From: a virus
DNA: 64,000 nt
Virus record (IMG/VR): IMGVR_UViG_3300023179_000077
Location: 1 to 64,000 of that record
Direction: 5' to 3' (one strand)
Below the pieces are notes generated by a model. That model saw only the letters and a program-made list of their open reading frames with translations, was not told the origin of the DNA and did not search any database. Below are positions 559-20,406 of the stretch, piece after piece. Both the position numbers and the translations under genes were made by a program. Numbering within the stretch: the stretch's first letter is position 1; the number at the start of each line of letters is the position of its first letter.

Positions 559-909
559 ATGAAAAAACAAATCAACGAAATAAAAAGAATGCAGCTTATC
601 GCTGGATTAATCACTGAAAGTGAATATCAAGAATCATTAATGAAAGAAGCAATTAAAGTTATACAAGATGGTGATCAAATAGAAATATCAGATGATAGTG
701 GTAATTATTCTGGATTTATAGAAGATGATGGTACTGTACGTTTTTCTGTAGTATATGAAGGTGAAGATTTTAATGACGAAAACTGGAGAGATATCTTAGG
801 ATCAAATCACGCTTTTGTTAAAATTATAGATAAAATTGGCGGTGATGTTGAAGCATTAGATGATTATGTTCAAATTACTGTTGATGCTAATAAATTAATT
901 AATATTTAA
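559..909 (+). CDS. Acidic hypothetical protein with MKKQINEIKRMQLIAGL leader (putative head internal protein)
   Basis: ORF with A-rich start context; leader shared with 974 and 16921. Confidence 0.75.
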   Translation: MKKQINEIKRMQLIAGLITESEYQESLMKEAIKVIQDGDQIEISDDSGNYSGFIEDDGTVRFSVVYEGEDFNDENWRDILGSNHAFVKIIDKIGGDVEALDDYVQITVDANKLINI

Positions 910-973
910 TATAATAAAATATACAGAACAGATTCATTCTTGGATATTTATTGATATATCATAACAAAAAAAA

Positions 974-1303
974 ATGAAAAAGCAACTTAATGAAATTAAA
1001 AGAATGCAGCTTATCGCTGGATTAATCACTGAAAGTGAATATCAAGAATCATTAATGAATGAAGAAAATGAAGCAATGTCTGAAGAAGAAGTTCTTAATA
1101 TTTTAAATCAAAATGGAGTAGATGATGATTATTTTGAATCAATGGGAGGTAAAGAAATAGAATCAGGAACTGAAGAGTGGATGGGTATTTTAACTGATTT
1201 AACTGGAAAAGATGCTTTTGAAGCTGACTTTGATGATGCAGATAATCAAAAAATTATGAATTTTATAAAAAAGTTAAAAGAAATGGGAATTGAATTAGTA
1301 TAA
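974..1303 (+). CDS. Acidic hypothetical protein with MKKQLNEIKRMQLIAGL leader (putative head internal protein)
   Basis: First 28 residues nearly identical to ORF 559; remainder unrelated. Confidence 0.75.
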   Translation: MKKQLNEIKRMQLIAGLITESEYQESLMNEENEAMSEEEVLNILNQNGVDDDYFESMGGKEIESGTEEWMGILTDLTGKDAFEADFDDADNQKIMNFIKKLKEMGIELV

Positions 1304-1319
1304 AATAATAAAATATACA

Positions 1320-1368
1320 GAACAGATTCATTGCCTGTTCGCCTCGCAAGAGGATTTATATATAAATC
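1320..1368 (+). ncRNA. Putative structured RNA element (three consecutive hairpins)
   Basis: GAACAG/CTGTTC stem, CCTC-GCAA-GAGG GNRA hairpin and GATTTATA/TATAAATC inverted repeat, directly before a terminator. Confidence 0.4.
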
Positions 1369-1408
1369 GGAGTAGTGGCCCTAAAACAGCCACTACTCCA
1401 TTTTTTTT
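1369..1408 (+). terminator. Rho-independent terminator
   Basis: GGAGTAGTGGC / GCCACTACTCC 11-bp stem followed by A and T8. Confidence 0.85.
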
Positions 1409-1432
1409 GTAATATTTATTATAAATAATATT

Positions 1433-1978
1433 ATGATAGGTATTTATAAAATAACTAACCCTGAAAAAGAAATATATATTGGTCAATCAACTAATATAGA
1501 AAAAAGATTTGAAACATATAAAAAGCATTATTGTAAAGAACAAACTAAATTATATGAATCTTTAAAAAAATATGGATGGTTTTATCATTCTTTTGAAATA
1601 ATAGAAGAATGTAAAGAAGAAGAATTAAATGAAAAAGAACAATACTGGATAAAACAGCACAACTGTGTTTTAAATGGTATGAATTGCATAGGAGGAGGTT
1701 ATCATAAACCTTATATATATCCTGAAGAAGCTAAACGTATTAAAAGTGAAAAAATGAAAAAACTTTGGATGGAAAATAAATTTAAAAGAAAACTAGGAAA
1801 ACGAATACAAAATATAAAAACCGGAGAGATATATGAATCTTGTTCTGAAGCAGCTAATAAATTAAATATAAGTCTTTCTACTATAGCGATATGGTGTAAA
1901 AAAGAAAAAAATATAAAATATATTGATAATTGGAATATTAGACCTTCAAAATTTGAAATGGCAAAAATAAATTATTAA
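1433..1978 (+). CDS. GIY-YIG homing endonuclease (Seg-like) with C-terminal NUMOD1-like HTH
   Basis: GIYKITN..IYIGQS.NI.KR, LNEKEQYWI, YESCSEAANKLNIS. Confidence 0.85.
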   Translation: MIGIYKITNPEKEIYIGQSTNIEKRFETYKKHYCKEQTKLYESLKKYGWFYHSFEIIEECKEEELNEKEQYWIKQHNCVLNGMNCIGGGYHKPYIYPEEAKRIKSEKMKKLWMENKFKRKLGKRIQNIKTGEIYESCSEAANKLNISLSTIAIWCKKEKNIKYIDNWNIRPSKFEMAKINY

Positions 1979-1998
1979 TTTTATAAAAACAATAAAAC

Positions 1999-2202
1999 AT
2001 GAAGCAACAACTTAAAGTAATAGATGGAAGAGAAATACTTGACCATGATGGGATTTATATTCCTGCTGACTCTTCCGGAGATGCTGGGTTGTTTATAACC
2101 ATAGATTCTACATTTGATGCTGGCGATTATGAAACAGCTGGAGACAGTGGAGAAATAAATATAAATGGAAAAATATTTAAATGGGCTATACTGTATTCTT
2201 AA
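1999..2202 (+). CDS. Small acidic hypothetical protein
   Basis: ORF; its start region is a 22-nt exact repeat of the next gene's start region. Confidence 0.6.
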   Translation: MKQQLKVIDGREILDHDGIYIPADSSGDAGLFITIDSTFDAGDYETAGDSGEININGKIFKWAILYS

Positions 2203-2224
2203 CATAATATAAAAACAATAAAAC

Positions 2225-2491
2225 ATGAATTATCAAAGATCAATTAGAGGATGGTTTAACATGGTTAACAATGCTATCTCTGCAGAAAATAAAGCTAAAA
2301 TCCCAGCAACACCCCCTCCACCCGCAGAACCAGAAACTCCTACAGTTATTGAAAAACTAGATTCAATAATTGAAAATTTAGAAGAAATTACTGAAATGGT
2401 AAAAGCAGATAAAGAAGTAAAAACAGAAGAACCTCAAGAAACAATTAAAGAATATAAAAGAAAAAATAAAGAAAAACAAGATGAAGAATAA
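2225..2491 (+). CDS. Hypothetical protein (Pro-rich linker, charged C-terminus)
   Basis: ORF with A-rich start context. Confidence 0.65.
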   Translation: MNYQRSIRGWFNMVNNAISAENKAKIPATPPPPAEPETPTVIEKLDSIIENLEEITEMVKADKEVKTEEPQETIKEYKRKNKEKQDEE

Positions 2492-2540
2492 TAGGATGTT
2501 GGTCTGATGGAACTTTATTATATTTATAATAAATAACATT

Positions 2541-3185
2541 ATGACTAAAATTTATATGTTAGAAAAAAATGGAGTTCCATTTTATGTGGGTAAAGCTAAT
2601 GATGTGATTAGACGAAAACATAAGCATTATCAAACATATGGTTTAGATATTAAAGCAGAAATAATTGATGAAGTTGAGGATAAACAATGGAAATTTTGGG
2701 AACAATATTGGATATGTCAATTTAAAGCTTGGGGTTTTATTTTGTTAAATAAAAATAATGGAGGAGGAGGACCAACAGAATGGACATTAAAACAAAAACA
2801 AAATATTAATCCTGAACGAATAAAAAAAATTATGAATCATCCTACTAGAGGAAAACATATAAGTAAAACATTAAAACAAAGAAATCATTCAAAATATTAT
2901 ACTGAAAGTGTAAGACAAAAAATATCCGAGGCAAATAAAAATATTCCTAGACCATTTTCAAATGAACATAAATTAAATATGGGTATAGCTAAACGTAAAC
3001 AAGCTAAACCTGTACTTATGTTTGATTTAGAAGATAATTTTATAAAAGAATGGGAAAGTAAAGGACAAGCTGCTGAATGGATAAGAGAACAAACAGGTAA
3101 AACAAGTAATATAACATCACAAATTAAAGATTGTTGTTTAGGAAGACAAAAAACAGCTTTTAAATTTAAATGGAAATACAAATAA
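2541..3185 (+). CDS. GIY-YIG-like homing endonuclease with NUMOD3/NUMOD1-type DNA-binding repeats
   Basis: IYMLEKNGVPFYVGK..R, WEQYWI, LLNKNNGGGG, RQKISEA, KPVLMFDL..FIKEWES, TAFKFKWKY. Confidence 0.75.
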   Translation: MTKIYMLEKNGVPFYVGKANDVIRRKHKHYQTYGLDIKAEIIDEVEDKQWKFWEQYWICQFKAWGFILLNKNNGGGGPTEWTLKQKQNINPERIKKIMNHPTRGKHISKTLKQRNHSKYYTESVRQKISEANKNIPRPFSNEHKLNMGIAKRKQAKPVLMFDLEDNFIKEWESKGQAAEWIREQTGKTSNITSQIKDCCLGRQKTAFKFKWKYK

Positions 3186-3187
3186 TT

Positions 3188-4504
3188 ATGAAACAAAAAA
3201 AGATTATAGTGATTGGAGCAGGAGTAGCTGGAATCAATTTTGCTACTAAAATGGTAGATAATGGATATCCAGGGAATCTTATAACAATTATAGATAAAGG
3301 AAATGATCCTTATAATCGCAAACCAGAGGAAGTTATGACAGGCATGCTAGGTAGTGGAGGGTGGAGCGATGGTAAACTCACCTACCACACAGCAATTGGT
3401 GGTCAACTATCAAAATATTGTGGTGAAGAAAAAGCAATGGAACTGATGAAGCAAGTAGTAGATAATTTTACCCGCTTCCATCCTAAACCAGATGAAATAT
3501 TCATGTCTGATCCACAAGAGGAACCTGAATTTATTAAACCATATTTTGGTTTGAGAATGTTTCCTGTGTGGCATATTGGATCTAACTTCTTGCACGAGAT
3601 CGCTAAGAATTGGTATCAATATTTAGTTGATAAAGGTGTTAAATTTATGTGGAATTATGAAGTAGTATCAATAGATTTTGAAACAAATAATTTTGAATAT
3701 ATTGAAACAAATGGAGATGATACTGATACTTTAATAGGCCAATATGACACACTCATATTCGCAGTAGGCAAATCAGGTATTGATTTCGCTCAACAATTAT
3801 CAAATGATTATAAATTACCAACTGAATCTAAAGCAGTACAAATTGGTGTTCGTTTTGAAGCACCACAAAAATATTTTCAAAAATTAATTGATATATCATA
3901 TGATTTCAAACTATATCAAAAATTCGATAAGGTATCTCTCCGTAGCTTTTGTACTAATAACAATGCGGCTTACGTTGCAGTGGAAGAAACTTATGGAGAC
4001 GTTAGCTACAACGGACACGCCAAAAAAGGTAAAGAATTCGAAAACCAAATGACTAATTTTGGTATTCTAATGGAAATCAAAGGTATTGAAGATCCATTTG
4101 CTTGGAGTAGAGATGTAGTAAATAGACTACAAATAGGTGAATATGGAGGTATATTTTATAGTCCCGATCCTAATCGTCAACCTTCACTTACTTCTGAAAA
4201 TGTATCTGTTAAATCATTTAAAGTAAATAATTTAGGATTATTTAAGTATTCTCTGGGTGAATATGCAACTTATATAATCAATTTTATTGAACAAATGAAT
4301 GAAATATTTCAATTTGATAATGATTATGGATTCTATGCTCCTGAAGTAAAATATCTTAGTCCTGAACCATTAGTTAACTATAATGATTTATCATTAACAA
4401 CACATCCAAATGTACACTTTGTAGGAGATGCACTTTCAGCTCGTGGTATTACAGTTAGTGGTGCGCATGGTATTTATGTTGCTGAAAGTATTTTGGCAAA
4501 ATAA
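3188..4504 (+). CDS. FAD/NAD(P)-dependent oxidoreductase (uncharacterised FAD-dependent dehydrogenase type)
   Basis: IIVIGAGVAG Rossmann motif, G.GGWSDGKL, GVRFE, FVGDA..RGI..SGAHG; start moved to MKQKK at 3188. Confidence 0.85.
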   Translation: MKQKKIIVIGAGVAGINFATKMVDNGYPGNLITIIDKGNDPYNRKPEEVMTGMLGSGGWSDGKLTYHTAIGGQLSKYCGEEKAMELMKQVVDNFTRFHPKPDEIFMSDPQEEPEFIKPYFGLRMFPVWHIGSNFLHEIAKNWYQYLVDKGVKFMWNYEVVSIDFETNNFEYIETNGDDTDTLIGQYDTLIFAVGKSGIDFAQQLSNDYKLPTESKAVQIGVRFEAPQKYFQKLIDISYDFKLYQKFDKVSLRSFCTNNNAAYVAVEETYGDVSYNGHAKKGKEFENQMTNFGILMEIKGIEDPFAWSRDVVNRLQIGEYGGIFYSPDPNRQPSLTSENVSVKSFKVNNLGLFKYSLGEYATYIINFIEQMNEIFQFDNDYGFYAPEVKYLSPEPLVNYNDLSLTTHPNVHFVGDALSARGITVSGAHGIYVAESILAK

Positions 4505-4528
4505 TTTTATTAATTTTAAAATAAAAAT

Positions 4529-4771
4529 ATGGTAAAAAAACTAGTAAAAGCAGATGGAACTATAGCATATGTTAATGAAGCTAATGGAGTATATAAACTT
4601 CATAATTTTGATGGACCTGCTCTTATTCCACAAGGCAATAAACGCTTAGCAGAGTATTATTTATTTGGTACTAAATACACTAAAGAAGCATGGGAACTAG
4701 CTAAAAAAGATGAAAATGGAGTTCCATTTCATAAGACAGCTGCTTCTAAAAAGATGGGTAACAGAAACTAA
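4529..4771 (+). CDS. Hypothetical protein with an LH..DGPA unit
   Basis: KLHNFDGPALI..EYYLFG..Y..EAW resembles a common phage repeat unit. Confidence 0.6.
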   Translation: MVKKLVKADGTIAYVNEANGVYKLHNFDGPALIPQGNKRLAEYYLFGTKYTKEAWELAKKDENGVPFHKTAASKKMGNRN

Positions 4772-4974
4772 TGAATCAATTTACTAGAACATACGAGGAC
4801 GATGAAACTATAGAAGTATGGACCTTCGATTTAGACAAATTTAGTGGAGGTCCTATTTCTGTAGACGTACAATATAAAGCAGGTGCTGAAAAGCAAATAA
4901 AAAATCGTGCTAAAGAAACAAAACAAATAAAGAAAACAGCACGACAAATGAAAAAAATAAATAACAAGTCATGA
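4771..4974 (+). CDS. Hypothetical protein
   Basis: Coupled to neighbours by overlapping stop/start codons. Confidence 0.6.
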   Translation: MNQFTRTYEDDETIEVWTFDLDKFSGGPISVDVQYKAGAEKQIKNRAKETKQIKKTARQMKKINNKS

Positions 4975-5489
4975 GAATAGGTTTAGCAGGAACAATGAGT
5001 GCAGGTAAAACAACGTTAGCAAAAGCATTAGGTGAATTAGATCAATTTAAAGACTATAAAATACAAACTGAACGCAGTAAGTATCTTAATAGTTTAGGTA
5101 TTCCACTTAATACTGATTCAACATTACCTGGTCAATTTGTATTCTTGGCTGAACGTGCTAGTGAGTTATTAGTAGACAATATTATTACTGATAGAACAAT
5201 TTGGGATGTGTGTGCTTTTACATTATCAGCTAAATCAATAAGCGATTGGGAAAAACGTACATTTGTTGAAGCAGCAATGTGTCTTAAAGATTATTATGAT
5301 GTAGTAATATATGTTTCATCACGTGGTGTACGAATGGAAGATAATGGTATTAGAGAAACTGATTTAGCTTATCGTATGAAAATAAATCAAACTATTGTAA
5401 TGGCATTAGATGAGTATAAACCCAAATGTGTGATTGAAGTTGAAGGTACAACTGAAGAAAGAATAAGCACTATATTAGCAAATATATAA
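4971..5489 (+). CDS. P-loop nucleotide kinase / NadR-type AAA_28 ATPase
   Basis: GTMSAGKTT Walker A, IITDRT, EDNGIRETD. Confidence 0.75.
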   Translation: MRIGLAGTMSAGKTTLAKALGELDQFKDYKIQTERSKYLNSLGIPLNTDSTLPGQFVFLAERASELLVDNIITDRTIWDVCAFTLSAKSISDWEKRTFVEAAMCLKDYYDVVIYVSSRGVRMEDNGIRETDLAYRMKINQTIVMALDEYKPKCVIEVEGTTEERISTILANI

Positions 5490-5499
5490 AATAAAAGTT

Positions 5500-6669
5500 A
5501 TGAGTATTATAAATGATGTAAGCAAAGTTGCAAAACAACTTATGCTAAAGGAACCGTTTTATGGAGTTTTTCTTTCAACATTAAATAAAAGAATAGGCAC
5601 AGATACTCCAACTGCGGGTGTTTGTTTAAATAATATTAATTATGAGTTGATTATTAATGAAGAATTTTGGAACTCATTAGATAATGACAATAAAAAAATT
5701 GGATTACTTAAACATGAATTACTTCATATATGTTTTAATCATTTAATTGATCGAGAAAATTATCCTGATCATATATTACATAATATTGCAGCTGATATTG
5801 AAATAAATCAATATATAGACCCACAATATTATTCAACAGATTCACTACTATTGCCATCATCTTTTTCAGAATTAACATTACCGGCAAAAGCCGGTACAAA
5901 ATATTATTATGATGCTTTACTTAAAGCTAAACAAAATAATACTAGCCCTACATTAAATAGTATGTTAGATGATAATTTTCATTTAACTTGGGGAGAATTT
6001 GAATCATTATCTGAAGCTGATAAGAAATTAATTAAAGCTCAAATCGATCATCAAATAAAAAGTATAGTAGAATCTCAAGCAGATAAAAGTAGAGGTTTTG
6101 TACCAAATGAATTAAAAGATTATATTGATAGTTTATTTGCAATTACTCCTCCATCATATGATTGGAAATCATATTTTAGAAGATTCTTTAGTTCATCATC
6201 CAAAATATACACTAAAAAAACACGCCGTAAACTAAATAAACGTTTCATAGAAAACCCAGCATTAAAAATTAAACCTAAAAAGAATGTATTAGTTGGAATT
6301 GATACTTCAGGTTCTGTTGGAAAAGAAGAGACAATAGAATTTTTTAATGAATTACATCATATGCATAAAACGGGAGTATCAATTACTATAGCTGAAGGTG
6401 ACGCCAAAGTACATAAAGTATATGAATATAAAGGCAAACCACCTGAAACTATTACTGGTAGAGGTGGTACTGAAATGAATGTTTTTATAGATTATTTTAA
6501 TAAAAATCCTCAATACAATAGTTTAATTATTTTCACTGATGGTTATATAGGTGAACGAACATTAAGTTCTTTTAAACCTATATTAACTGTTTTAACTTCA
6601 AACGGTGAAAAATTAGAAACAGTTATAGAAAATAAATGGGGAAATGTTATAAAAATGAATAAAAGATAA
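5500..6669 (+). CDS. Putative metallopeptidase fused to a vWA domain (DUF2201-like)
   Basis: HELLH zinc motif, NIAADIEINQ, DTSGS MIDAS motif, GRGGT, FTDG. Confidence 0.85.
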   Translation: MSIINDVSKVAKQLMLKEPFYGVFLSTLNKRIGTDTPTAGVCLNNINYELIINEEFWNSLDNDNKKIGLLKHELLHICFNHLIDRENYPDHILHNIAADIEINQYIDPQYYSTDSLLLPSSFSELTLPAKAGTKYYYDALLKAKQNNTSPTLNSMLDDNFHLTWGEFESLSEADKKLIKAQIDHQIKSIVESQADKSRGFVPNELKDYIDSLFAITPPSYDWKSYFRRFFSSSSKIYTKKTRRKLNKRFIENPALKIKPKKNVLVGIDTSGSVGKEETIEFFNELHHMHKTGVSITIAEGDAKVHKVYEYKGKPPETITGRGGTEMNVFIDYFNKNPQYNSLIIFTDGYIGERTLSSFKPILTVLTSNGEKLETVIENKWGNVIKMNKR

Positions 6670-6717
6670 GATGGTCGAGACTCTTATTATAAATTTATTT
6701 TGTAAAAAAATTAAAAT

Positions 6718-7902
6718 ATGTCAAGTAAAACTAAACAGGTTTCACTTAATGTTAATGAAGCAAAAATATTTCTTAAACACATCATTAACAATAATCGCTT
6801 TCTTCAATCTAATAACAAACTACCAGTAGCGGTTGAAGTAGTAGGAGATTCAGGTATTGGTAAAACATCAACTATTATTCAATTAGCCAACGAATTAGAT
6901 CTTAATTTTGTTAAATTAAATCTTGCTCAAATTGAAGAACTAGGTGATTTAGTTGGTTTTCCAATTCGTCAATTTGAAGTATGTAAAGATACAAATAATT
7001 GCACTTGGATTGATGAACATGCTGTAGATGAATATACAAAACAAGGATATAAATTTACAGGTCAAAATAGAATGAGTTATTGTCCACCTGAATGGATTAG
7101 TGGTAAAACAAATGGCGGTATATTGCTATTAGATGACTGGAATCGTGCTGATGTTAGATTTATTCAAGCTGTAATGGAGCTAATAGATAGACAGCAGTAT
7201 ATTAGTTGGTCTTTACCTAAAGATTGGCATATTATTCTCACAAGTAATCCTGATAATGGTGAATATCTAGTTAATAGTATAGATAACGCTCAAAAAACAC
7301 GATTTATATCTATTAATCTTAAATTTGATATTAACTGTTGGGGTGAATGGGCTGAAAATAATCAAATAGATAATAGATGTATTAATTTTCTTCTTAGACA
7401 TTCTGAATTAGTTAATACAAATACTAACTCTAGAAGTATTACAACGTTTTTTAATTCAATATCTTCATTATCTTCATTTGATGCTGAACTAGGTCTTATC
7501 CAAATGATTGGAGAAGGTAGTGTCGGTCCTGAATTTACTACTATGTTTACAATGTTTATTAATAATAAACTTGATAAAATTATATCTCCAGAAACTATTA
7601 TGACGCATGAAAGCTTTGATTATGTACTTAATACTTTAAAAGGAATTATAGGGAAAGATAAAGATTATCGTGCAGATTTAGCATCTATTATTTCAACTCG
7701 TATTATTAACTTTAGCTTGTTTTTCGCTAAAAATAATAAAGTTGAAAAAAGTTTTATAGATAGATTAGCATCACTTATAAACGAAGAATTATTTGCGGTT
7801 GATTTGAAATATAATATTGTTAAATCGATTTATAATGGTAATCAATCTTCATTCAAAAGTTTGACTTTGAATAAAACACTTCTTAATTTTATAATCAAAT
7901 AA
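6718..7902 (+). CDS. MoxR-like AAA+ ATPase
   Basis: GDSGIGKT Walker A, LLLDDWNRA Walker B, ILTSNP; adjacent to the vWA gene. Confidence 0.85.
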   Translation: MSSKTKQVSLNVNEAKIFLKHIINNNRFLQSNNKLPVAVEVVGDSGIGKTSTIIQLANELDLNFVKLNLAQIEELGDLVGFPIRQFEVCKDTNNCTWIDEHAVDEYTKQGYKFTGQNRMSYCPPEWISGKTNGGILLLDDWNRADVRFIQAVMELIDRQQYISWSLPKDWHIILTSNPDNGEYLVNSIDNAQKTRFISINLKFDINCWGEWAENNQIDNRCINFLLRHSELVNTNTNSRSITTFFNSISSLSSFDAELGLIQMIGEGSVGPEFTTMFTMFINNKLDKIISPETIMTHESFDYVLNTLKGIIGKDKDYRADLASIISTRIINFSLFFAKNNKVEKSFIDRLASLINEELFAVDLKYNIVKSIYNGNQSSFKSLTLNKTLLNFIIK

Positions 7903-7911
7903 TAAAAAGTT

Positions 7912-8904: not shown

Positions 8905-8915
8905 TATTTATTTAT

Positions 8916-9383: not shown

Positions 9384-9619
9384 AAAAGATTTTTGGATTA
9401 ATAGAAATGTATAAAAGTGATGCTTATCATTTTGATGACTTTGATGATACTATTATCGCTGAAACTTTAGATAAATTGAAAGAATCATTATCAAACTTAA
9501 AAGAAAATGATAACGCAAGTTACGCTCGCGTTATAAAAGAATATAAAAGTTCACTTGAAGGTGAACGTAAAGATGTTATAGAAGACTTTATTAAATACTC
9601 TAAATACTACAATAAATGA
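9380..9619 (+). CDS. Hypothetical protein
   Basis: Overlap-coupled ORF. Confidence 0.6.
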   Translation: MKKIFGLIEMYKSDAYHFDDFDDTIIAETLDKLKESLSNLKENDNASYARVIKEYKSSLEGERKDVIEDFIKYSKYYNK

Positions 9620-10557
9620 AAAAATCAGAATTACAAGAACTCATACGTGAGGTTGTTGATGAAGTAATAAATGAACAAGCTACAATTGACGTTTCTAATC
9701 CTGGATCTTTAACTGGTCCTCAAAAACAAACTTTAATTCAACGAGCTCGCAATAATACTAAAAATCCTAAAATAGGAACTGCTGATGAACCAGTTGAATT
9801 TGTTGAAAAAAAACTAAAAGAAATGGCTCGTCAGCCTATTATCTATAAATTAACTGACGACTATGCTGATAAACTTTCTGAATTGTCTTATATTGGTTCA
9901 TCTAAACGAATGGCATGGGTTAATGGTATTATAGAGTATATAAAAGATAATGGTCCTTCCGATATTACTAAAATAGCTAGAGAAAAATTTAATGTTCCTC
10001 AACCACGCATATCTGACTATGCTCGTGATATGATTAGACTTGGTATTTTAGCACCAACAACAGCGGGTGTTGTTCCTCAATTTATGAAACCTAAACCAGA
10101 ACCTGGTGAAGAAGTAGAACCAGAAGAAGAAACAGGTATTGTTTCTGGTGATTTAAGTGATGAAGAAATTGAAGCTTCATTTGCTAAAGCTAAAGCAGCG
10201 GGTGAAGAAGAACCTACTGGAATAGAAAAAACATCAGCTCCCACATCAGCTTCAGAATTATCAGATGAAGATTACAGTGATTTTATGAAATACACTGATT
10301 TAATGGATCGTTTAAATAGTGTAAAAGGTGATCTAAATAGAATGAAACGTAGTAGATTTATGGCAGGCGGTGGTGATATTAAAGATAAACCATCTGATGA
10401 AGAAAAACGTTTAAGAGATTTAAAAGCTAGTTTGGAACAACGCGTAAATACCTTAGTAGCTGGATCTGAGTATCTACAAAAACGTCAAGCTAAAAAAGAC
10501 GAATTAAACGAGTGGAATAAAAAGAAAATGCAGTATTACGCTGGTATTATAAAATAA
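9616..10557 (+). CDS. Putative head-associated protein with a winged-HTH-like segment
   Basis: N-terminal MKKSELQELIRE leader, ITKIAREKFNVPQPRISDYARDMIRLGIL HTH-like segment, C-terminal KMQYYAGI. Confidence 0.6.
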   Translation: MKKSELQELIREVVDEVINEQATIDVSNPGSLTGPQKQTLIQRARNNTKNPKIGTADEPVEFVEKKLKEMARQPIIYKLTDDYADKLSELSYIGSSKRMAWVNGIIEYIKDNGPSDITKIAREKFNVPQPRISDYARDMIRLGILAPTTAGVVPQFMKPKPEPGEEVEPEEETGIVSGDLSDEEIEASFAKAKAAGEEEPTGIEKTSAPTSASELSDEDYSDFMKYTDLMDRLNSVKGDLNRMKRSRFMAGGGDIKDKPSDEEKRLRDLKASLEQRVNTLVAGSEYLQKRQAKKDELNEWNKKKMQYYAGIIK

Positions 10558-11249: not shown

Positions 11250-11276
11250 AAAGCTCCGCCAAAAGCGGAGCTTTTT
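11250..11276 (+). terminator. Rho-independent terminator
   Basis: AAAGCTCCGC / GCGGAGCTTT stem plus T-run, followed by ATATTTAT. Confidence 0.8.
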
Positions 11277-11278
11277 GT

Positions 11279-11286
11279 ATATTTAT
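11279..11286 (+). promoter_or_regulatory. ATATTTAT putative late-promoter element (representative; about 24 gene-proximal copies)
   Basis: Copies start at 530, 944, 1412, 2520, 8904, 11279, 12879, 13569, 15494, 17503, 19203, 22156, 23241, 23935, 28308, 34394, 44152, 46773, 48313, 49340, 51126, 51705, 52748, 55672. Confidence 0.7.
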
Positions 11287-11290
11287 ATAT

Positions 11291-12871: not shown

Positions 12872-12900
12872 TTCTGTTATATTTATTATAAATAACTAGT

Positions 12901-13578
12901 ATGAAAATTTGTATTAAATGTAACCAAGAAAAAGAATTAAATAATTTTTATAAAAATAATAGAAATAAATCAGGATATGAAGGTATTTGTAAATCTTGTA
13001 AAAATGAATATACTATTTTAAATAATAAAAAATTAGGAAATAAATACTTTCAATTAACTTCTAAAAAATGGTCAAATAAAAATAAAAATAAAATATCACA
13101 ATATAATAAAGAAAAATATAATAATAATAAAGAATACTGGTTAAGTGAAAATAGAAAATTATATAGTAAAGAATGGAGAAGTAATAATAAAGATAAATTA
13201 GCAAAATATTGGAAAATTAAATATGATACTGATATTAATTTTAAACTATCTTGTTTGTTAAGACTTAGGTTATATAATGCTTTAAAACTAAATTTAAAAA
13301 CTAAAAGTGCTATAAAATTAATAGGTTGTACAATAGATACTTTTAAACAATATCTTGAATCTAAATTTAAACCAGAAATGAATTGGAATAATCATGGTGA
13401 TATTTGGGAAATTGATCATATTAAGCCATGTGATTCCTTTAATCTAACAGATATAGAACAACAAAAACAATGCTTTCATTATACTAATATGCAGCCATTA
13501 TTTAAAACAACAAAAATTGCTGAGTCGTTTGGATATAATGAATTAGGCAATAGAAATAAGACTAATAAATATTTATAG
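12901..13578 (+). CDS. HNH homing endonuclease with N-terminal CxxC zinc finger
   Basis: CIKC..CKSC, MNWNNHG..WEIDHIKP, CFHYTNMQPL. Confidence 0.8.
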   Translation: MKICIKCNQEKELNNFYKNNRNKSGYEGICKSCKNEYTILNNKKLGNKYFQLTSKKWSNKNKNKISQYNKEKYNNNKEYWLSENRKLYSKEWRSNNKDKLAKYWKIKYDTDINFKLSCLLRLRLYNALKLNLKTKSAIKLIGCTIDTFKQYLESKFKPEMNWNNHGDIWEIDHIKPCDSFNLTDIEQQKQCFHYTNMQPLFKTTKIAESFGYNELGNRNKTNKYL

Positions 13579-13596
13579 ACATAATAAAGCAATATA

Positions 13597-15486
13597 ATGG
13601 CAGAAAATAACCAACAACAACCCGGTTTATTTAGTAGGCTTACACGATTATTCAGTACAGATGTTATTATTAGAAATGTTGGTGGAAATCAACTCAAAGT
13701 AGTAGATGTTGATAAAATTCAAGCTTATGGTAATGTAAAGACAAATGCATTAATAGATAGATATACAAAACTTCATCGTTATGGAGCTAATATGCCCTAT
13801 AACCCAACAATGAACTATCAAACACTTCGTATTCAGTTATATACTGACTATGAAGCTATGGATACAGAATCTATTATAGCATCTGCTCTTGATATTGTAG
13901 CTGATGAGGCTACATTAAAGAATGAAGCAGGTGAAGTATTACAAATCAGAAGTGCTGATGAAAATATTCAACGTATATTATATAATTTATTCTACGATAT
14001 ATTAAACATTGAATTTAATTTATGGTTGTGGATTAGAAATATGTGTAAGTATGGTGATTTTTATTTACACATGGAAGTCGCTGAAAAATTTGGTGTATAC
14101 AACGTAACACCTCTTTCAGTATATGATATGATTCGTGAAGAAGGACAAGATCCTGAAAATCCATCTTATGTTTGCTTCAGAATAGATCCAATGGTTATAG
14201 CTGCTGGTGGTATAAGCAATCGTGTTAAAGATAGAGATGGTAAAATTAAATTTGAAAACTACGAAATAGCTCACTTTAGGCTATTAACTGATGCAAACTA
14301 TCTTCCATACGGAAGATCATATATTGAACCTGCTCGTAAAACATATAAGCAATATGTGTTAATGAAAGATGCAATGCTATTGCATCGTATCACTCGTGCC
14401 CCAGAAAAACGTGTGTTTACTATTAATGTTGGTAACATTCCTCCTCATGAAGTAGATGCTTATATGCAGAAGGTAATGCAAAAAATGAAAAAAACACCTT
14501 ACATTGATCAACAAACAGGTGAATATAATTTAAGATATAATTTAATGAACTTAATGGAAGACTTTTATCTTCCAGTTCGCGGTAATGATACAGCAACTAA
14601 AATAGATACTGTAAAAGGTCTTGAGTATAATGCTATTGAAGACGTAGCATTCTTACGTGATGAAATGTTAGCTGCACTTAAGATACCTAAAGCATTTTTT
14701 GGTTTTGAAAAAGATCTTGAAGGTAAAGCTACATTAGCCGCTGAAGATATTCGTTTTGCTCGTACAGTAGAACGCGTACAGCGTATTGTTATTTCTGAAT
14801 TGTATAAAATGGCATTAGTGCATTTATATGTTCAAGGATATGATGGTGAAGCATTAACTAACTTTGAGTTATCATTAACTACTCCATCTATCATTTACGA
14901 ACAAGAGAAAGTAGCATTATGGAAAGAAAAAGTTGACTTAGCTAAATCAATCCAAGACACTAACTTATTACCTTCAGATTGGATATATGATAATGTATTC
15001 CAATTCAGTGAAGATCAATATGATGAATATCGTGATTTAATGCTTGAAGATAAAAAACGTGTGTTTAGATTAGCTCAAATTGAAAATGAAGGTAATGACC
15101 CCGCTAAATCAGGTAAATCATATGGTACACCACATGATTTAGCTTCACTATACGGCAAAGGCAGAACAGGAATGGATACTGATGGACCTATACCTCCTGG
15201 ATATGATGAAAAGCGTCCTGTTGGTCGTCCTAAAGAAAGAGCATCTATTATTGGTACTCAACAGGATCCATTAGGTAAAGATAGACTTGGTAGAAAAGCA
15301 AATAGTACTCTTTATACTGCTAATATTCCTTCTGAAGATGGTACTCCAAAAGGGGGTTCACCTGTTGCTTTAGCTGAATTAAAGAAAAATAAAAGCTTAT
15401 TAGAAAGTATCAACGTAGAACGCAAAAAGCTAATATACGATGAAGAAAATAATATGCTAAGTGAGAAAAATATCAAGGGTATATAA
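13597..15486 (+). CDS. Portal protein (T4 gp20-like)
   Basis: PYGRSYIE.ARK, RITRAPEKRVF.INVGNIP, EDFYLPVRG, ALKIPK, EDIRFARTV. Confidence 0.92.
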   Translation: MAENNQQQPGLFSRLTRLFSTDVIIRNVGGNQLKVVDVDKIQAYGNVKTNALIDRYTKLHRYGANMPYNPTMNYQTLRIQLYTDYEAMDTESIIASALDIVADEATLKNEAGEVLQIRSADENIQRILYNLFYDILNIEFNLWLWIRNMCKYGDFYLHMEVAEKFGVYNVTPLSVYDMIREEGQDPENPSYVCFRIDPMVIAAGGISNRVKDRDGKIKFENYEIAHFRLLTDANYLPYGRSYIEPARKTYKQYVLMKDAMLLHRITRAPEKRVFTINVGNIPPHEVDAYMQKVMQKMKKTPYIDQQTGEYNLRYNLMNLMEDFYLPVRGNDTATKIDTVKGLEYNAIEDVAFLRDEMLAALKIPKAFFGFEKDLEGKATLAAEDIRFARTVERVQRIVISELYKMALVHLYVQGYDGEALTNFELSLTTPSIIYEQEKVALWKEKVDLAKSIQDTNLLPSDWIYDNVFQFSEDQYDEYRDLMLEDKKRVFRLAQIENEGNDPAKSGKSYGTPHDLASLYGKGRTGMDTDGPIPPGYDEKRPVGRPKERASIIGTQQDPLGKDRLGRKANSTLYTANIPSEDGTPKGGSPVALAELKKNKSLLESINVERKKLIYDEENNMLSEKNIKGI

Positions 15487-15524
15487 TAGATAAATATTTA
15501 TAGATAGTGTACACTAACTAAATT

Positions 15525-16379
15525 ATGAAAATAAAACATTCTAAATTTCGAAACACTGGTATATTATTTGAATTATTGGTGCGTCAGATAGCATCTGACA
15601 CTTTATCTAATAAAGACTCTGCAGCTGTTAATTTAGTTAAAAAGTATTTTAACAAAACCGAATTAACTAAAGAATATAAAATATATCAGACTTTAATTAA
15701 TTCAAAACTTTTAAGCGAAGCTAAAGCTGAAACATTCATAAATACAGCATTAGATGCTTCTTTGCGTTTAAATAAAACTACTTTACGTAAAGAAAAATAT
15801 AATTTAATTAAAGAAATCAAAGAAAACTACGACTTAGAAGAATTCTTTAAAGCAAAAATCAATCATTATACTCAATACGCTGCTGTATTCAATTTAATTG
15901 AATCTCATAGCTCAACAGAATTTATTGATCCTAAACTTATTATTGATAATAAAATTACTCTATTAGAGCATATTACACGTAAAGAAGTTAATAAAGAAGA
16001 CGTTAAAGATCGTGTAATAGAAGAATACATGAAACTAGATAAAGGTTCTCGTATACTTGCTTATCGTATGTTATTAGAGAAATTCAACACAAAATACGCT
16101 GAGTTGAATGATAAGCAAAAAAATGTATTAAAAGAATATATCAATAATGTAACTAATACTGTTAAATTAAGAGAATTCGTTAATAATAATTTTAATGTTA
16201 TTATTAGCGAATTAAAGTTAATTATCCCCACAATAGAAGATAAAACAACTCAAATTAAATTAACAGAAATAACTAATTTCCTTCAACCATTGGATAAAAA
16301 TCAAAATGTAAAAGATGAAAATATAATTTCACTTTTGCAGTTTTATCAGTTATTAAATGAGTTAAAAGCCATTAAATAA
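15525..16379 (+). CDS. Conserved-looking helical protein in the head module
   Basis: Long ORF between portal and protease, preceded by ATATTTAT. Confidence 0.65.
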   Translation: MKIKHSKFRNTGILFELLVRQIASDTLSNKDSAAVNLVKKYFNKTELTKEYKIYQTLINSKLLSEAKAETFINTALDASLRLNKTTLRKEKYNLIKEIKENYDLEEFFKAKINHYTQYAAVFNLIESHSSTEFIDPKLIIDNKITLLEHITRKEVNKEDVKDRVIEEYMKLDKGSRILAYRMLLEKFNTKYAELNDKQKNVLKEYINNVTNTVKLREFVNNNFNVIISELKLIIPTIEDKTTQIKLTEITNFLQPLDKNQNVKDENIISLLQFYQLLNELKAIK

Positions 16380-16924
16380 TGGATCAATTAAGAGAAAAAT
16401 TAAAGCAATTAATACGTAAAGAACTAGAGGAGATGTCTGCTACTAGTGGTGGAGAAGCATATTCTACTCCTTTTGCTTTTGCTAAAAAAGGTCAAAAAAC
16501 AAACGCTGCTATTCAAACAGCTAAATCTCAAGGAATGAAATTAGCTCCTACAGGAATACCTAGTGACTCTAAAGTAAGAGATTATAAAGCAATTTGGAAA
16601 TCAGCTGAAAAATCTAAATATAAGATGTATAAAGAATCTTTAGAAAAAATTGTTAAAGAAGAGTTACTCAACGAAGTAACCTATTCTAAATTCAAAAACG
16701 AAGTTAAATTTAGAACTAAATCAGAACAACTTCATAAAGCAATTCGTGAAGTAAAACGTAAACTACAAGAAATTGATCGTATTGTTGAATATACTTCACG
16801 CATGAAACAAGAATTAAGTGAAGACGGCGGTATCAACTATTGGAAAGCCACTCAAAAGAATATAGGTACTATATCTGAAATGGTAAACCAATTAAATAAT
16901 AAGATTAAAAATTTACATCAATGA
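16379..16924 (+). CDS. Putative prohead core / internal protein
   Basis: LKQLIRKELEE and LEKIVKEELLNE helices; head-module position. Confidence 0.55.
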   Translation: MDQLREKLKQLIRKELEEMSATSGGEAYSTPFAFAKKGQKTNAAIQTAKSQGMKLAPTGIPSDSKVRDYKAIWKSAEKSKYKMYKESLEKIVKEELLNEVTYSKFKNEVKFRTKSEQLHKAIREVKRKLQEIDRIVEYTSRMKQELSEDGGINYWKATQKNIGTISEMVNQLNNKIKNLHQ

Positions 16925-17355
16925 AAAAGCAAATTAACGAAATCCGCAGAATGCAGCAATTAGCTGGGATTTTAAAAGAAAATAATATAAACGAAGCTCC
17001 TCAGCCTGATTGGGGTTCTATGGGACTTACATATAGTGATACAATAGGAGATGATAATGAAGGTGAATATAATGAGATTGTGGATATAACAAAAAAATTA
17101 TATCAAGACTTCATAGAACAATATGAGAAAATGCCAGATCAAGAAAAAATTGAATATAAAATATCACAAGATATAGATAACGATATTACGAATATGTTAG
17201 ATGCAATATATAGCTTTTCTTTTAGAAAGGATAATAATGTTAAACTTAGTGATGGAAGAACAGTTAGTATTAACTATCTTATGAACAAAATGCTTGAAAA
17301 GGGAGAATACAGTAAACTAGCTCAAGATATCTTGGAAATAATTATAGGCTTATAA
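16921..17355 (+). CDS. Hypothetical protein with MKKQINEIRRMQQLAGI leader (putative internal protein)
   Basis: Leader shared with 559 and 974 and with the scaffold C-terminus. Confidence 0.7.
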   Translation: MKKQINEIRRMQQLAGILKENNINEAPQPDWGSMGLTYSDTIGDDNEGEYNEIVDITKKLYQDFIEQYEKMPDQEKIEYKISQDIDNDITNMLDAIYSFSFRKDNNVKLSDGRTVSINYLMNKMLEKGEYSKLAQDILEIIIGL

Positions 17356-17374
17356 ATAAAAATTAATATCAATA

Positions 17375-17503
17375 ATGGCAAAAGGTAAAGGTGGTAGTGA
17401 AAGCCGTAAAATAACATTCGGCAAACGCAAATTAGGAAAAGCAAAAAAATCCTACAATAAGCACGATAGAACAGAAAAAAACTACCGTAGACAAGGACGA
17501 TAA
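17375..17503 (+). CDS. 42-aa highly basic peptide MAKGKGGSESRKITFGKRKLGKAKKSYNKHDRTEKNYRRQGR (not in the ORF track)
   Basis: Translated by hand; fills the gap, has A-rich start context, ends in YRRQGR like small basic peptides of T4-like phages. Confidence 0.75.
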   Translation: MAKGKGGSESRKITFGKRKLGKAKKSYNKHDRTEKNYRRQGR

Positions 17504-17537
17504 TATTTATACATAACAAACCATAAATTATAACACA

Positions 17538-17930
17538 ATGAAAAAAAGCGAATTACGTGAATTAATAAAAGAAATAATACTTCAAGAAATAACTAAAGTA
17601 GAGGAAAGTCAAGAAGAAAGAGGAATTACACCTAGTGGTCAAATTCAAACTCCCGCACAAGCTCTTGGCCGTGCTCGCCCTAGAACTTCCGCTGAGTTAG
17701 CTTGGGAAAATTATGGTTTGGACAGATATACTGCTGGAGTAGCATATAACGGAGGATATACTAAAAAAGATGGAACATTTGTTCCAGTAGATGAACAAGG
17801 ATTAGTTAATATAGTAATATCCATGTTAAAGAAAAAATTACCAAATGCTGATTCTGAAATTGTAGATTGGATGAAAAATAAAACTAGAGAGGTGTATAAA
17901 AGACAACAATCGTTTAAAAAAGGTAGTTAA
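17538..17930 (+). CDS. Hypothetical protein with MKKSELRELIKE leader
   Basis: Leader matches ORF 9616. Confidence 0.7.
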   Translation: MKKSELRELIKEIILQEITKVEESQEERGITPSGQIQTPAQALGRARPRTSAELAWENYGLDRYTAGVAYNGGYTKKDGTFVPVDEQGLVNIVISMLKKKLPNADSEIVDWMKNKTREVYKRQQSFKKGS

Positions 17931-17940
17931 AAATAATATA

Positions 17941-18570
17941 ATGAAAAGCATACAAAACCAATATCGCGATCTTAAAGAAGGAAAAATGTCACAAGCTAAC
18001 TTTATGCGTAATGTGCGTATGACTTTTCCTCATTTAGTTACTAATGTAACATCATTTGATGATACTGTCAGAATACTTAAAAATAAACAAATATTAAGCG
18101 AAGCTAAAACTAAACTACACCCAAATCAAATTCACCCACAAGAATTAAGAATGGGTATTAAAGTAGAAATGGAACACACAGATGATCCTAAAAAAGCAGA
18201 AAAAATTGCTTTAGATCATTTAGCAGAAAATCCATTTTACTACACAGCATTAAAATTATCAGGCATTGAATCACCTTCAGCTCCTAAAACTAAAACACCT
18301 GCTAAAGCTAAAGCTAAAAAAGAATCAGTTGAATTAGTTGATAAAGAAAATCAAATGAAAACACCAAAAGGTGTTGAAAAAGCAAAAGCATCAGCTAATA
18401 AAGCACATAAAGAAACAAACAAAGGTGTTAAAGGAGTAGAAGAACTCACTCACGCTGCTAAAAAAGCTAAAGGCATTAAACAAGTAATGTCTCCTACTGG
18501 TGGTAAAATGAAAACCATTAGAGAACAATTAGAAAAACTTGTGCGTGAAGCCATAAATGAATATTACTAA
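17941..18570 (+). CDS. DUF5661-like head-module protein
   Basis: LRMGIKVEMEHTDD..AEKIALDHL.E.P.YY motif; Lys-rich tail. Confidence 0.6.
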   Translation: MKSIQNQYRDLKEGKMSQANFMRNVRMTFPHLVTNVTSFDDTVRILKNKQILSEAKTKLHPNQIHPQELRMGIKVEMEHTDDPKKAEKIALDHLAENPFYYTALKLSGIESPSAPKTKTPAKAKAKKESVELVDKENQMKTPKGVEKAKASANKAHKETNKGVKGVEELTHAAKKAKGIKQVMSPTGGKMKTIREQLEKLVREAINEYY

Positions 18571-19175
18571 TGAAATCATTACTCATAGACCATACTCCTT
18601 TCCAACATGCTAAGCTTACTTTAGTTGAAGGTAAAGTAAACAATGGTACTGTCACTTTAGTTGGTAAATTACAAGAAGCTGAACAAAAAAACGGCAATGG
18701 TCGTGTATATCCTCGCGAAATACTTGAAAGAGAAGTAAAAAAATATGCTGAAGGACCAATAAAAACACGCACTGCTTTAGGAGAACTCGATCATCCTGAA
18801 GCCTCTGTTGTTAATCTAGCAAATACTTCCCATGTTATTACAGAAGTATGGTGGAAAGGAAATGACTTAATGGGTAGATTACAACTATTACCCACACCCG
18901 CGGGCAATATCGCTAAAGCACTTGTATTATCTGGTATTCCACTTGGTATTTCATCACGCGGTATGGGTAGTGTTAAACAACTTGGTGAAACAGTTGAAGT
19001 ACAAGACGATTTTGAATTGTTATGTTGGGATTTAGTATCAGTACCTAGTACTCCACAAGCATATATGAGAATAGCTGAAGCAAAGCAATATGCTTCTATT
19101 AAAGATTATAGCAAAGTAAATAGTTTAATTACAGAAATTATTTGTCAACATACTGGAGTTTGTCCTTTATGTTAA
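18570..19175 (+). CDS. Prohead core protease (T4 gp21-like)
   Basis: NGNGRVYP, ALGELDHP, GISSRGMGS, WDLVS.PS. Confidence 0.93.
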   Translation: MKSLLIDHTPFQHAKLTLVEGKVNNGTVTLVGKLQEAEQKNGNGRVYPREILEREVKKYAEGPIKTRTALGELDHPEASVVNLANTSHVITEVWWKGNDLMGRLQLLPTPAGNIAKALVLSGIPLGISSRGMGSVKQLGETVEVQDDFELLCWDLVSVPSTPQAYMRIAEAKQYASIKDYSKVNSLITEIICQHTGVCPLC

Positions 19176-19210
19176 ATAATTCACGTCTTTCCATATCTCC
19201 ATATATTTAT

Positions 19211-19323
19211 GAGCATCCTACAATAGGTTGCTCATTCTTATGCAACCTCGGGTATATTACAAACCCCTATTAAGATTTTCTAATAATCTTATTTCCGAAA
19301 AAAAATTTAAGGAGAAAAATTTT
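19211..19323 (+). promoter_or_regulatory. Structured 5' leader of the scaffold/capsid operon
   Basis: GAGCA.CCTA-CAA-TAGG.TGCTC and TAAGATT/AATCTTA hairpins between ATATTTAT (19203) and the ATG at 19324. Confidence 0.4.
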
Positions 19324-20406
19324 ATGACAAACCAAGATTTGTTCAAAGAAGCAATTGCTGACGCTAAAGCTATTCGTGAAACTGCTTTAGCTAATGCAAA
19401 AGTTGCTCTTGAAGAAGCTCTTGCTCCTAGACTTCAATCTATGCTTGCTGCTAAATTGCAAGAAATGGATAATATGGACGAGGCTGAAGAAGAGAAACTT
19501 GAAGAAAAATCACTCGGTCAAGACACTTATCGTACAGGCGATGTACAACATGTTGGTGCTAGAGAAAGACATGCTGCACTCGAAGAAAACGAAGAAGAAC
19601 TTGAAGAAGATTTTGATTTATCTGAAATTTTAGCTGAACTCGAAGAAGCTAAAGAAGAAGAAGAAAAAGAAAAAATGAAAGAAGCTAAAAAAGAAGAAGA
19701 GGAAGATGAAGAAGAAGGTGAAGAGCCTGCTGAATCTGAACCTGCTGAATCTGAAACAGTGGCTGATCTTTCAGTTGATGAATTAAAAATGATTATCAAA
19801 GACATTATTTCTAGCGAAATGGAAGACGGCGGCATGGAAGACATGGGCGGCGACGAAACAGAAGCTGGAGACGAAATGACGGTTGATGTATCATCTGATG
19901 AAGGTGAAGGAATGGAAGAAGATCTTAATTTAGAAGAATTATTAGCTGAACTTGACGCTTTAGACGAAGACTATTCTGAAGAAGAAACAGAATACGAAGA
20001 AGGTGGAATGTACGAAGCTAAGAAAAAAGCTAAAAAAGAAGATGATAAAATGAAAAAAGAGTTAGATGAAGCTATTGCTACTATCCATACTCTTCGTTCA
20101 GAACTTAACGAAGTTAATCTTCTTAACGCTAAATTACTCTATGTAAATAAGATTTTCAAAGCCAAGAACTTAACTGAATCACAAAAACTTAAAGTAATCG
20201 CTCAATTTGACAAAGCATCTACTGTTAAAGAAGCTAAGATGATTTATGAAACTATGGACGTTGCTATTGCAAAATCTGCTAAGTCTTCAATTAAAGAATC
20301 TATGGGTTTTGCTTCCAAAGCAGCAGGTGTTGCTAAAAAACCAATCGTCGAAGTGGACGAAACAATGTCAAGATGGCAAATGCTTGCTGGCATTAAAAAA
20401 CACTAA
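19324..20406 (+). CDS. Prohead scaffolding/core protein (T4 gp22-like)
   Basis: Very acidic coiled-coil protein between protease and major capsid; ATG at 19324 preferred over TTG at 19228. Confidence 0.85.
   Translation: MTNQDLFKEAIADAKAIRETALANAKVALEEALAPRLQSMLAAKLQEMDNMDEAEEEKLEEKSLGQDTYRTGDVQHVGARERHAALEENEEELEEDFDLSEILAELEEAKEEEEKEKMKEAKKEEEEDEEEGEEPAESEPAESETVADLSVDELKMIIKDIISSEMEDGGMEDMGGDETEAGDEMTVDVSSDEGEGMEEDLNLEELLAELDALDEDYSEEETEYEEGGMYEAKKKAKKEDDKMKKELDEAIATIHTLRSELNEVNLLNAKLLYVNKIFKAKNLTESQKLKVIAQFDKASTVKEAKMIYETMDVAIAKSAKSSIKESMGFASKAAGVAKKPIVEVDETMSRWQMLAGIKKH

Follow-up and report, generated by a model that had tools for sequence, protein, structure and literature searches.

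The window analysed here, a 64,000-nucleotide stretch of IMG/VR record IMGVR_UViG_3300023179_000077 that is part of a 77,053-base viral contig, encodes a gp22-like scaffold whose C-terminal peptide recurs on unrelated proteins of the same virus. From sequence comparison, we infer that this peptide is probably a prohead-loading tag, which copies the docking peptide of the scaffold and is clipped off by the prohead protease. The initial annotation had proposed that the scaffold peptide is a portable module usable at either terminus of unrelated proteins; comparative and statistical evidence now supports this proposal and extends it to positions between domains.

A six-frame scan of the window and the whole contig with the motif [RK][MW]Qx[LIY]AG[IL] revealed five copies in 77 kb, all on the + strand, in real open reading frames (ORFs, named by their first nucleotide) and at protein termini. 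These are the C-termini of the scaffold and of ORF 9616 and the N-termini of ORFs 559, 974, and 16921. A wider pattern, Qx[LIYMFV]AG[ILV], detected the same five places only. Shuffling the 81 predicted proteins gave a mean of 0.011 matches and a maximum of 2 in 5,000 shuffles, compared to the 5 observed. In the translations, ORF 559 starts with MKKQINEIKRMQLIAGLITE, ORF 974 with MKKQLNEIKRMQLIAGLITE, and ORF 16921 with MKKQINEIRRMQQLAGILKE, while ORF 9616 ends in LNEWNKKKMQYYAGIIK and the scaffold in IVEVDETMSRWQMLAGIKKH; the strings quoted in the initial annotation are exact. The search of the genome and its relatives that it had suggested found these five terminal copies here, and terminal copies in relatives too.

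The three N-terminally tagged proteins are small. ORF 559 (559..909, + strand) encodes an acidic protein of 116 amino acids (body isoelectric point [pI] 4.05), in which residues 1-20 form the leader and the docking core KRMQLIAG (586-609) lies between INE (residues 5-7) and ITE (residues 18-20), the only two [LI]xE sites of the protein. ORF 974 (974..1303, + strand), which encodes a second small acidic protein of 109 amino acids, has the same 28-residue leader on an unrelated body. Since about 28 N-terminal residues are identical, ORFs 559 and 974 are leader paralogues. ORF 16921 (16921..17355, + strand; 144 amino acids) lies within the head module, has leader sites INE7, LKE20, and INE25, and has a homologue with an identical leader type in one related locus (L006). 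BLASTP bore out the earlier statement that the bodies behind the tags are unrelated. Pfam and PHROGs searches with the three tagged proteins, the ORF 9616 protein, and the scaffold gave nothing above threshold, and a protein atlas contained no usable feature match for the bodies of ORFs 559 and 16921. The N-terminal tags had been described as lying between [LI]xE sites. This description was correct and could be extended, as both C-terminal tags are likewise preceded by an [LI]xE site (LNE in ORF 9616, IVE in the scaffold). Thus, [LI]xE sites bracket the tag or cut it off in every copy.

The contig derives from a T4-type myovirus related to Flavobacterium phage vB_FspM_immuto (immuto), with which it has its gene order in common and shares 53% identity in the large terminase TerL, 59% in the portal, and 58% in the major capsid protein (MCP). 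It encodes the gp21-type (S77) protease, gp22-type scaffold, and gp23-type MCP of such phages. The prohead maturation protease (18570..19175, + strand) was assigned to the T4 gp21 type from phrog_207 (E 5e-53), from relatives, and from an alignment to T4 gp21 in which the active-site His and Ser motifs GELDHP and GISSRGMGS are retained. The scaffold (19324..20406, + strand) is acidic and has many [LI]xE sites. Its start codon is most likely the ATG at 19324 (MTNQDLFKEAI...) rather than the TTG at 19228. Its IVE site lies at 20344-20352, and positions 20371-20394 (both + strand) encode the tag core SRWQMLAG(I), followed by a hook, GIKKH, at the very end. The MCP gene follows (20437..22083, + strand; gp23-like by phrog_138, E 7e-72, and by alignment to T4 gp23).

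In T4 gp21 and related proteases, cleavage follows the Glu of a hydrophobic-x-Glu motif (PMC5694885; PMC9026906). The predicted maturation site of the MCP, QLITE59/ASAT (slashes denote cuts), aligns with the T4 gp23 site LTE/AEIG, and the tags of ORFs 559 and 974 end in the same LITE/, followed by S. In the leader consensus, [LI]xE occurs at positions 7, 20, and 25. Since the leaders have three sites, the 13-residue docking peptide would be excised whole. In scaffolds, P-I-[VI]-E is fixed 8 residues before the R of the tag, and in the ORF 9616 family the tag is preceded by PLDE or LNE. Thus, the sites of the leaders, the scaffolds, and the ORF 9616 family fit the phage-encoded gp21-type protease, as the initial annotation had proposed for the N-terminal tags. 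The N-terminal leaders also have the hallmark of a T4-type capsid-targeting sequence (CTS), a terminal propeptide ending at hydrophobic-x-Glu.

Comparison of [LI]xE counts with composition-matched shuffles revealed that the bodies of leader-bearing proteins contain 119 sites, while 186 ± 12 were expected (z -5.7, ratio 0.64). Scaffolds, in contrast, are enriched, with 672 sites versus 400 expected (z +17.5). Such depletion would be expected of bodies that have to withstand the protease responsible for destroying the scaffold. This is our main new, indirect evidence that tagged proteins meet the prohead protease.

We examined relatives in 79 IMG/VR loci around MCP genes whose products are 55-90% identical to the MCP. 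All 64 strict matches to the motif in these loci are terminal; except for one further C-terminal case, each is at the scaffold C-terminus or starts at ORF residues 11-12. With a loose pattern, 95 of 99 matches in 564,006 ORF residues (the contig, immuto, and 92 IMG/VR loci) were terminal, with 36 N-terminal, 59 C-terminal, and 4 internal. The immuto scaffold ends in VSRWQKLAGIIK, and two immuto proteins (immuto26A_41 and immuto26A_188) start with MKKQILSEQF[KR]RMQxLAGIITES. In deposited annotation, the immuto scaffold (immuto26A_204; MW353175; L001 12001-13242) is called a 'DNA polymerase phi-like protein' and immuto26A_194 a 'cob(I)alamin adenosyltransferase'; both names look spurious, arising from acidic or coiled-coil composition.

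Alignments revealed that the same tag residues are constrained in leaders, scaffolds, and the ORF 9616 family. Across 16 N-terminal leaders, E7, Q12, A15, and G16 are invariant and R10 nearly so. The invariant positions are R110, Q112, A115, and G116 in 29 scaffolds and A309, G310, and I311 in 63 sequences of the ORF 9616 family. Variants of the tail extend to distant scaffolds, ending in ..ILNESNNVVERMKKLAGIVK in Microcystis phage Mel-JY01 and in ..SRMQKLADIS in a 484-kb uncultured phage. Other T4-type scaffolds have a looser ending, in which an aromatic residue and two further residues are followed by a small or hydrophobic stretch and then basic residues (VYAKVASRF in T4, SYVAAAKRF in Apostate, AYLKAARTNR in ValKK3, and KYVDAIARWSK in S-RIM2). 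The tail is probably ancient among gp22-type scaffolds.

The codons for invariant residues vary: N is encoded by AAC or AAT, Q by CAG or CAA, A by GCT or GCA, G by all four codons, and S by AGT or TCN. Further, the scaffold tail and the leaders have no DNA identity in common. Since synonymous codons differ at invariant residues, selection acts on the peptide and not on DNA or RNA, and the codon evidence rules out an RNA- or DNA-level cause of the constant leader. We also rejected the possibility that the protease carries a tag: it has none in any of the relatives, and the tagged ORF found upstream of the scaffold in two loci (L008 and L018) is an additional gene.

To gauge how widely the leader is used, we searched 1.84 billion representative proteins with a 34-position profile built from the 16 leaders. 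This census returned 1,417 clusters at E≤1e-3, 128 of them at E≤1e-10, and nearly all have the leader at residue 1. In 146 of the 150 best matches, the leader starts within the first 7 residues; in the other 4, which are fusions or polyproteins, it is internal. The leader consensus reads MK[QKT]Q[IL]NE[IA]KRMQxLAG[IL][IL][TNK]E[SN][QE][LY][NQ]E. The bodies have a median length of 105 amino acids and are mostly acidic, with a median pI of 4.8 versus 6.5 for the proteins of the contig. BLAST sorted 137 bodies into 86 families, and Pfam gave a single match among the 150 best leader-bearing proteins, to NT5C/HAD in a fused protein. Complete IMG/VR genomes carry one to three N-terminally tagged genes, which differ between close relatives. 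Among 50,697 deposited phage records, tblastn detected the leader in immuto phages only.

Models suggest how the peptide may dock. An AlphaFold2 model of the last 120 scaffold residues, made from the 29-sequence alignment, consists of a three-helix domain, a linker of low predicted confidence (pLDDT) that contains the IVE site, a helix at residues 106-114 (TMSRWQMLA), and a non-helical GIKKH. The AlphaFold2 model of the ORF 9616 protein ends alike, with a helix at residues 299-308 followed by AGIIK. The tail is thus predicted to form a helix and hook after a flexible linker, the arrangement found in the phage 80alpha scaffold protein and CpmB. Cryo-electron microscopy resolved this helix and hook in the 80alpha scaffold tail and in CpmB of SaPI1, whose copy of the tail (RIIK motif) attaches to the same site on the N-terminal arm of the capsid protein (PMC5644958). 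The likeness to the 80alpha RIIK tail is limited in sequence to the ..IIK ending, and a phmmer search of PDB sequences with the scaffold tail returned nothing relevant.

We examined the genomic context of the tagged genes. The head module starts with the portal gene (13597..15486, + strand), whose gp20-like product is 59% identical to its immuto counterpart, and several small ORFs lie between the portal and protease genes. ORF 16921 and many tagged genes of relatives are located between the portal and MCP genes. ORFs 559 and 974 lie outside the head module, adjoining a DenV-like gene and a GIY-YIG endonuclease gene. A ATATTTAT element (530..537, + strand) lies 29 nucleotides upstream of ORF 559, and a second copy (944-951, + strand) lies 30 nucleotides upstream of ORF 974. 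The element also precedes the portal, sheath, tube, hub, and fibre genes and occurs in 37 copies compared to 21 expected. Thus, tagged genes lie in or beside the head module or carry the upstream motif of structural genes.

As a separate observation, the 37 sites of the form ATATTTAT(A), spread over window positions 530-63294, are found 12-52 nucleotides upstream of most structural genes, of the two stand-alone tagged genes, and of several homing-endonuclease genes. ATATTTAT(A) is likely a late-promoter element, related but not identical to T4 TATAAATA.

The ORF 9616 protein (9616..10557, + strand; 313 amino acids) is conserved and shows how a C-terminal tag is built into a larger protein. Its N-terminal leader is MKKSELQELIRE.., and its C-terminal tag is LNE/WNKKKMQYYAGIIK, whose core is encoded at 10525-10548. 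Between them, the AlphaFold2 model shows a winged-helix-like domain, then a linker that is acidic and disordered, and then a helical hairpin. The family has 795 homologues at E≤0.001. It keeps both a second type of N-terminal leader, MK.SEL..LIRE..EVL.E, and a near-invariant C-terminus, ..Q[YF]YAGI[IK]K, in which A-G-I is invariant. The gene lies two genes upstream of TerL, as it does in two related loci (L012 and L025). In immuto, tblastn detected no homologue, and no tagged equivalent is present upstream of TerL. A Foldseek search with the model yielded weak winged-helix rows and rows for the HK97 small terminase (TerS), all with E about 1, and VIA-align gave generic helical hairpins only. 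The ORF 9616 protein may be a conserved core protein or an internal DNA-binding protein rather than cargo.

The second leader type, MKKSEL[QR]ELI[RK]E.. ending in [LI]xE, is found in the window at 9616-9675 and 17538-17600, and also at 16379, 22715, and 26482. At 17538 it belongs to a head-module protein (17538..17930, + strand), whose leader, MKKSELRELIKE, resembles the T4 CTS and is of the type in ORF 9616. This leader family is nearer to the T4 CTS than the RMQ tag is, and in one relative (L101 5001-5588) it substitutes for the RMQ leader on the same cargo body. A third common leader, M(A)(D/E)NF(N/D)L(R/K)(S/K)FL.ENKL....LKE, begins immuto26A_194, immuto26A_195, and immuto26A_202 (L001 4006-5306 and 11616-11843), near TerL and the protease, and may be another targeting or processing leader.

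Relatives also use the tag at joints. A weakly ParB-like protein ends in ..EIKRMQKLAGLI and is encoded between the protease and scaffold in one locus (L099). Its ParB-like domain, with ParBc_2 matches at E about 0.004, below threshold, recurs as tagged cargo (P0013, P0086, and L097-L099). In P0013 and P0086, the tag joins this domain to a hydrophobic, glycine-rich module downstream of it. The glycine-rich module also occurs alone, preceded in L008 and L018 by the RMQ leader and in L101 by a T4-CTS-like one. Since the same module occurs with an RMQ leader, an internal tag, and a T4-CTS-like leader, the tag is modular, works at joints, and is exchangeable for another leader type. These fusions are possible capsid-borne nucleases and membrane-active proteins.

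A model that accommodates these data is that the peptide R-[MW]-Q-x-L-A-G-I, a short helix with a hydrophobic and basic hook, is the docking end of the scaffold in this T4-type phage of Bacteroidota. Many unrelated small proteins, most of them acidic, would have acquired the same peptide N-terminally, while a few larger ones (the ORF 9616 family and, in relatives, a ParB-like protein) would carry it C-terminally and some polyproteins between their modules. During prohead assembly, the tag would take the site of a scaffold tail and so build the tagged proteins into the prohead; this site most probably belongs to the MCP, either to its inner face or to its N-terminal arm. The activated gp21-type protease would then cut after the bracketing [LI]-x-E sites, freeing the site-poor cargo body, shedding the 13-17-residue tag as a small peptide, and degrading the site-rich scaffold. 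The freed proteins would remain in the head and probably be delivered with the DNA. By analogy with 80alpha, the binding partner is most likely the MCP.

Several points weigh against this model. The specificity of the protease for [LI]xE is inferred from homology and one aligned site. In contrast to the depleted bodies, small ORFs that lack a tag in the same loci are mildly enriched in sites (ratio 1.34; 1.12 for acidic ones), but this control set includes site-rich head proteins. The tag has a free C-terminus in the scaffold, while its N-terminal and internal copies run on into the chain; the binding mode must therefore tolerate both. The cargo bodies are acidic, whereas T4 internal proteins are basic, which is awkward for proteins that would lie beside packaged DNA. 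The ORF 9616 protein might be a packaging protein and small-terminase candidate, a role made possible by its position two genes upstream of the large terminase and its winged-helix-like domain. Finally, a full-text literature search for the motif strings found no paper, nor was there one on immuto virion proteins.

A serious alternative, although an unlikely one in our estimation, is that loading occurs as in the model, with the portal or the lattice of the scaffold or core, rather than the MCP, as the docking partner of the tag. The scaffold tail would then connect scaffold proteins with each other or with the portal, and the core would take up tagged proteins by co-polymerisation. T4 internal proteins are said to associate with the core through their CTS (PMC5694885; PMC9026906), and it is this description of the CTS as core-binding that gives the alternative its weight. 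Further conserved regions of the scaffold could serve as the receptor, and the CTS of the T4 internal proteins IPII and IPIII, MKTYQEFIAE, resembles the gp22 N-terminus, MLKEQLIAE, a hint of core-type mimicry. Against core docking, the predicted helix and hook after a flexible linker matches the one solved scaffold-capsid contact, that of 80alpha. In addition, the tail is conserved down to about 55% MCP identity, and nearly so in Mel-JY01, which fits a very conserved partner, for example the MCP. These two points do not decide the matter.

It is improbable, and more so than core docking, that the tagged acidic proteins are auxiliary core or scaffold parts like T4 gp67 and gp68, expelled before DNA packaging, with no cargo injected. 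The tagged proteins are acidic, as are the scaffold and gp67, some of their genes occupy the part of the head module that in T4 holds genes 67 and 68, and acidic proteins fit poorly beside packaged DNA. However, since the bodies are site-depleted while scaffolds are strongly enriched, the bodies appear to be selected to survive the protease. Also at odds with a core-filling role, the bodies fall into 86 unrelated families among the top 137, within 1,417 clusters overall, and the one to three N-terminally tagged genes per complete genome differ between close relatives, resembling accessory arms-race genes.

Although MKKQ-type A-rich starts could favour translation and immuto encodes both GroEL and GroES, we consider it very improbable that the motif is a general interaction, chaperone, degradation, or translation-enhancing leader that occurs in the scaffold by chance, since selection acts on the peptide and not on RNA, the motif is also found at C-termini and internal joints, the bracketing protease-type sites are avoided in bodies, and tagged genes cluster in the head module.

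If the model of a clip-off loading tag is correct, it marks a very large and almost wholly uncharacterised set of small proteins, probably carried in the heads of aquatic Bacteroidota phages. Some of these small proteins could be factors that act early in infection, possibly against host defences. The tag, being short and equipped with its own release sites, could also serve to load foreign proteins into such capsids. Tentatively, we raise a broader possibility, which we hold with much less confidence than the model itself, that T4-type capsid-targeting leaders in general mimic a scaffold terminus, so that cargo competes for the scaffold's docking site on the MCP, and that in Bacteroidota phages a single 8-residue hook, clip sites on either side, addresses an open-ended pool of injected effectors, spread across environments and comprising more than 1,400 protein clusters; the hook would then also be a ready-made, transferable tag for loading.

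The window contains other features of note. The protease has a conserved tail (window 19130-19175 and relatives) of the form ..ITE/IIC..TG[VI]CP[LI]C after an [LI]xE site. This Cys-rich tail may be a propeptide that the protease removes from its own C-terminus, since gp21-type proteases are known to process their C-termini in a comparable way. The head module also includes a 42-amino-acid, extremely basic ORF (MAKGKGGSESRKITFGKRKLGKAKK...; 17375-17503), and phage Mel-JY01 has a gene for ribosomal protein bS21 at a comparable position (L088 3597-3824). GIY-YIG and Cys-rich (HNH-like by eye) endonuclease-type ORFs are numerous (window 1433-1978, 2541-3185, 12901-13578, and 22170-22718; contig 64978-75053), and include some between TerL and the portal and directly after the MCP gene. 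DNA nearly identical to the contig was found mainly in DNA runs from lake and other freshwater metagenomes and in one RNA run only, with 5% of words.

Of known systems, the T4 CTS is the closest in kind. Mullaney and Black reportedly described it in 1996 as a sequence on the internal proteins IPI-III and Alt that is removed by gp21. Both it and the RMQ leader are short, removable sequences on unrelated, hypervariable proteins that end at a Glu cut by a gp21-type protease. The T4 ip genes, like the tagged genes, are scattered or in the head module, and Alt has propeptides at both ends, as the ORF 9616 protein would have. However, the RMQxLAGI tag bears no resemblance to MKTYQEFIAE, and only the second leader (MKKSELQELIRE) is CTS-like, by eye; this T4-CTS-like leader coexists with the tag in one phage. 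The tag is also used at either end and between modules, and its cargo is acidic, while that of T4 is basic. Unrelated T4 proteins are directed to the core by the CTS, which gp21 removes, and internal protein genes are hypervariable (PMC9026906, PMC9958956), while the localisation of T4 proteins in the prohead core has been called 'mysterious' (PMC9958956). The tag described here corresponds to the C-terminal peptide of the scaffold itself, and this match suggests a mode of docking. Since the address label visibly copies the scaffold's own tail, it provides a concrete docking hypothesis. We also noted a short match between the T4 gp22 N-terminus, MLKEQLIAE/ (L085 6118-6927), and the IPII/IPIII CTS, MKTYQEFIAE/ (L086 and L087). 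Thus, the T4 CTS may mimic the opposite end of the scaffold.

In 80alpha and CpmB, as in our model, a C-terminal scaffold helix and hook is copied onto an unrelated protein that uses the same capsid site (PMC5644958), although here the shape is predicted. There, the copy belongs to a capsid-resizing parasite, is C-terminal only, and is never clipped; here, the copies are the phage's own, are carried by many proteins, are mostly N-terminal, and have protease sites around them. Encapsulin loading peptides of about 10 residues, C- or N-terminal, direct unrelated cargo to the luminal face of an HK97-fold shell, with one tag common to many kinds of cargo (PMC7355545). The tag shares with them a portable peptide at either terminus on unrelated cargo of such a shell. 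It differs in that the encapsulin tag is retained, with neither scaffold nor protease, while the tag described here is bracketed by cut sites and belongs to the head module of a tailed phage that has both. The two peptides presumably also resemble each other in a hydrophobic-G-hydrophobic-basic pattern.

Protease and scaffold genes are nested in herpesviruses, lambda (C/Nu3), and P2 (gpO), and the HK97 protease has a C-terminal targeting tail. In the nested systems, the protease enters the procapsid by a scaffold-type C-terminal tail, which in herpesviruses is removed at maturation. There, in-frame nesting places the tail on one protein; here, a free-standing module is found on hundreds of unrelated genes, and the protease has no tag. 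Systems of this kind are therefore known, in the T4 CTS, the encapsulin peptides, the nested protease and scaffold tails, and 80alpha and CpmB. What is new is that the tag is the scaffold's own tail, that release sites bracket it, that it is used at N-termini, C-termini, and joints, and that it marks a very large pool of orphan proteins.

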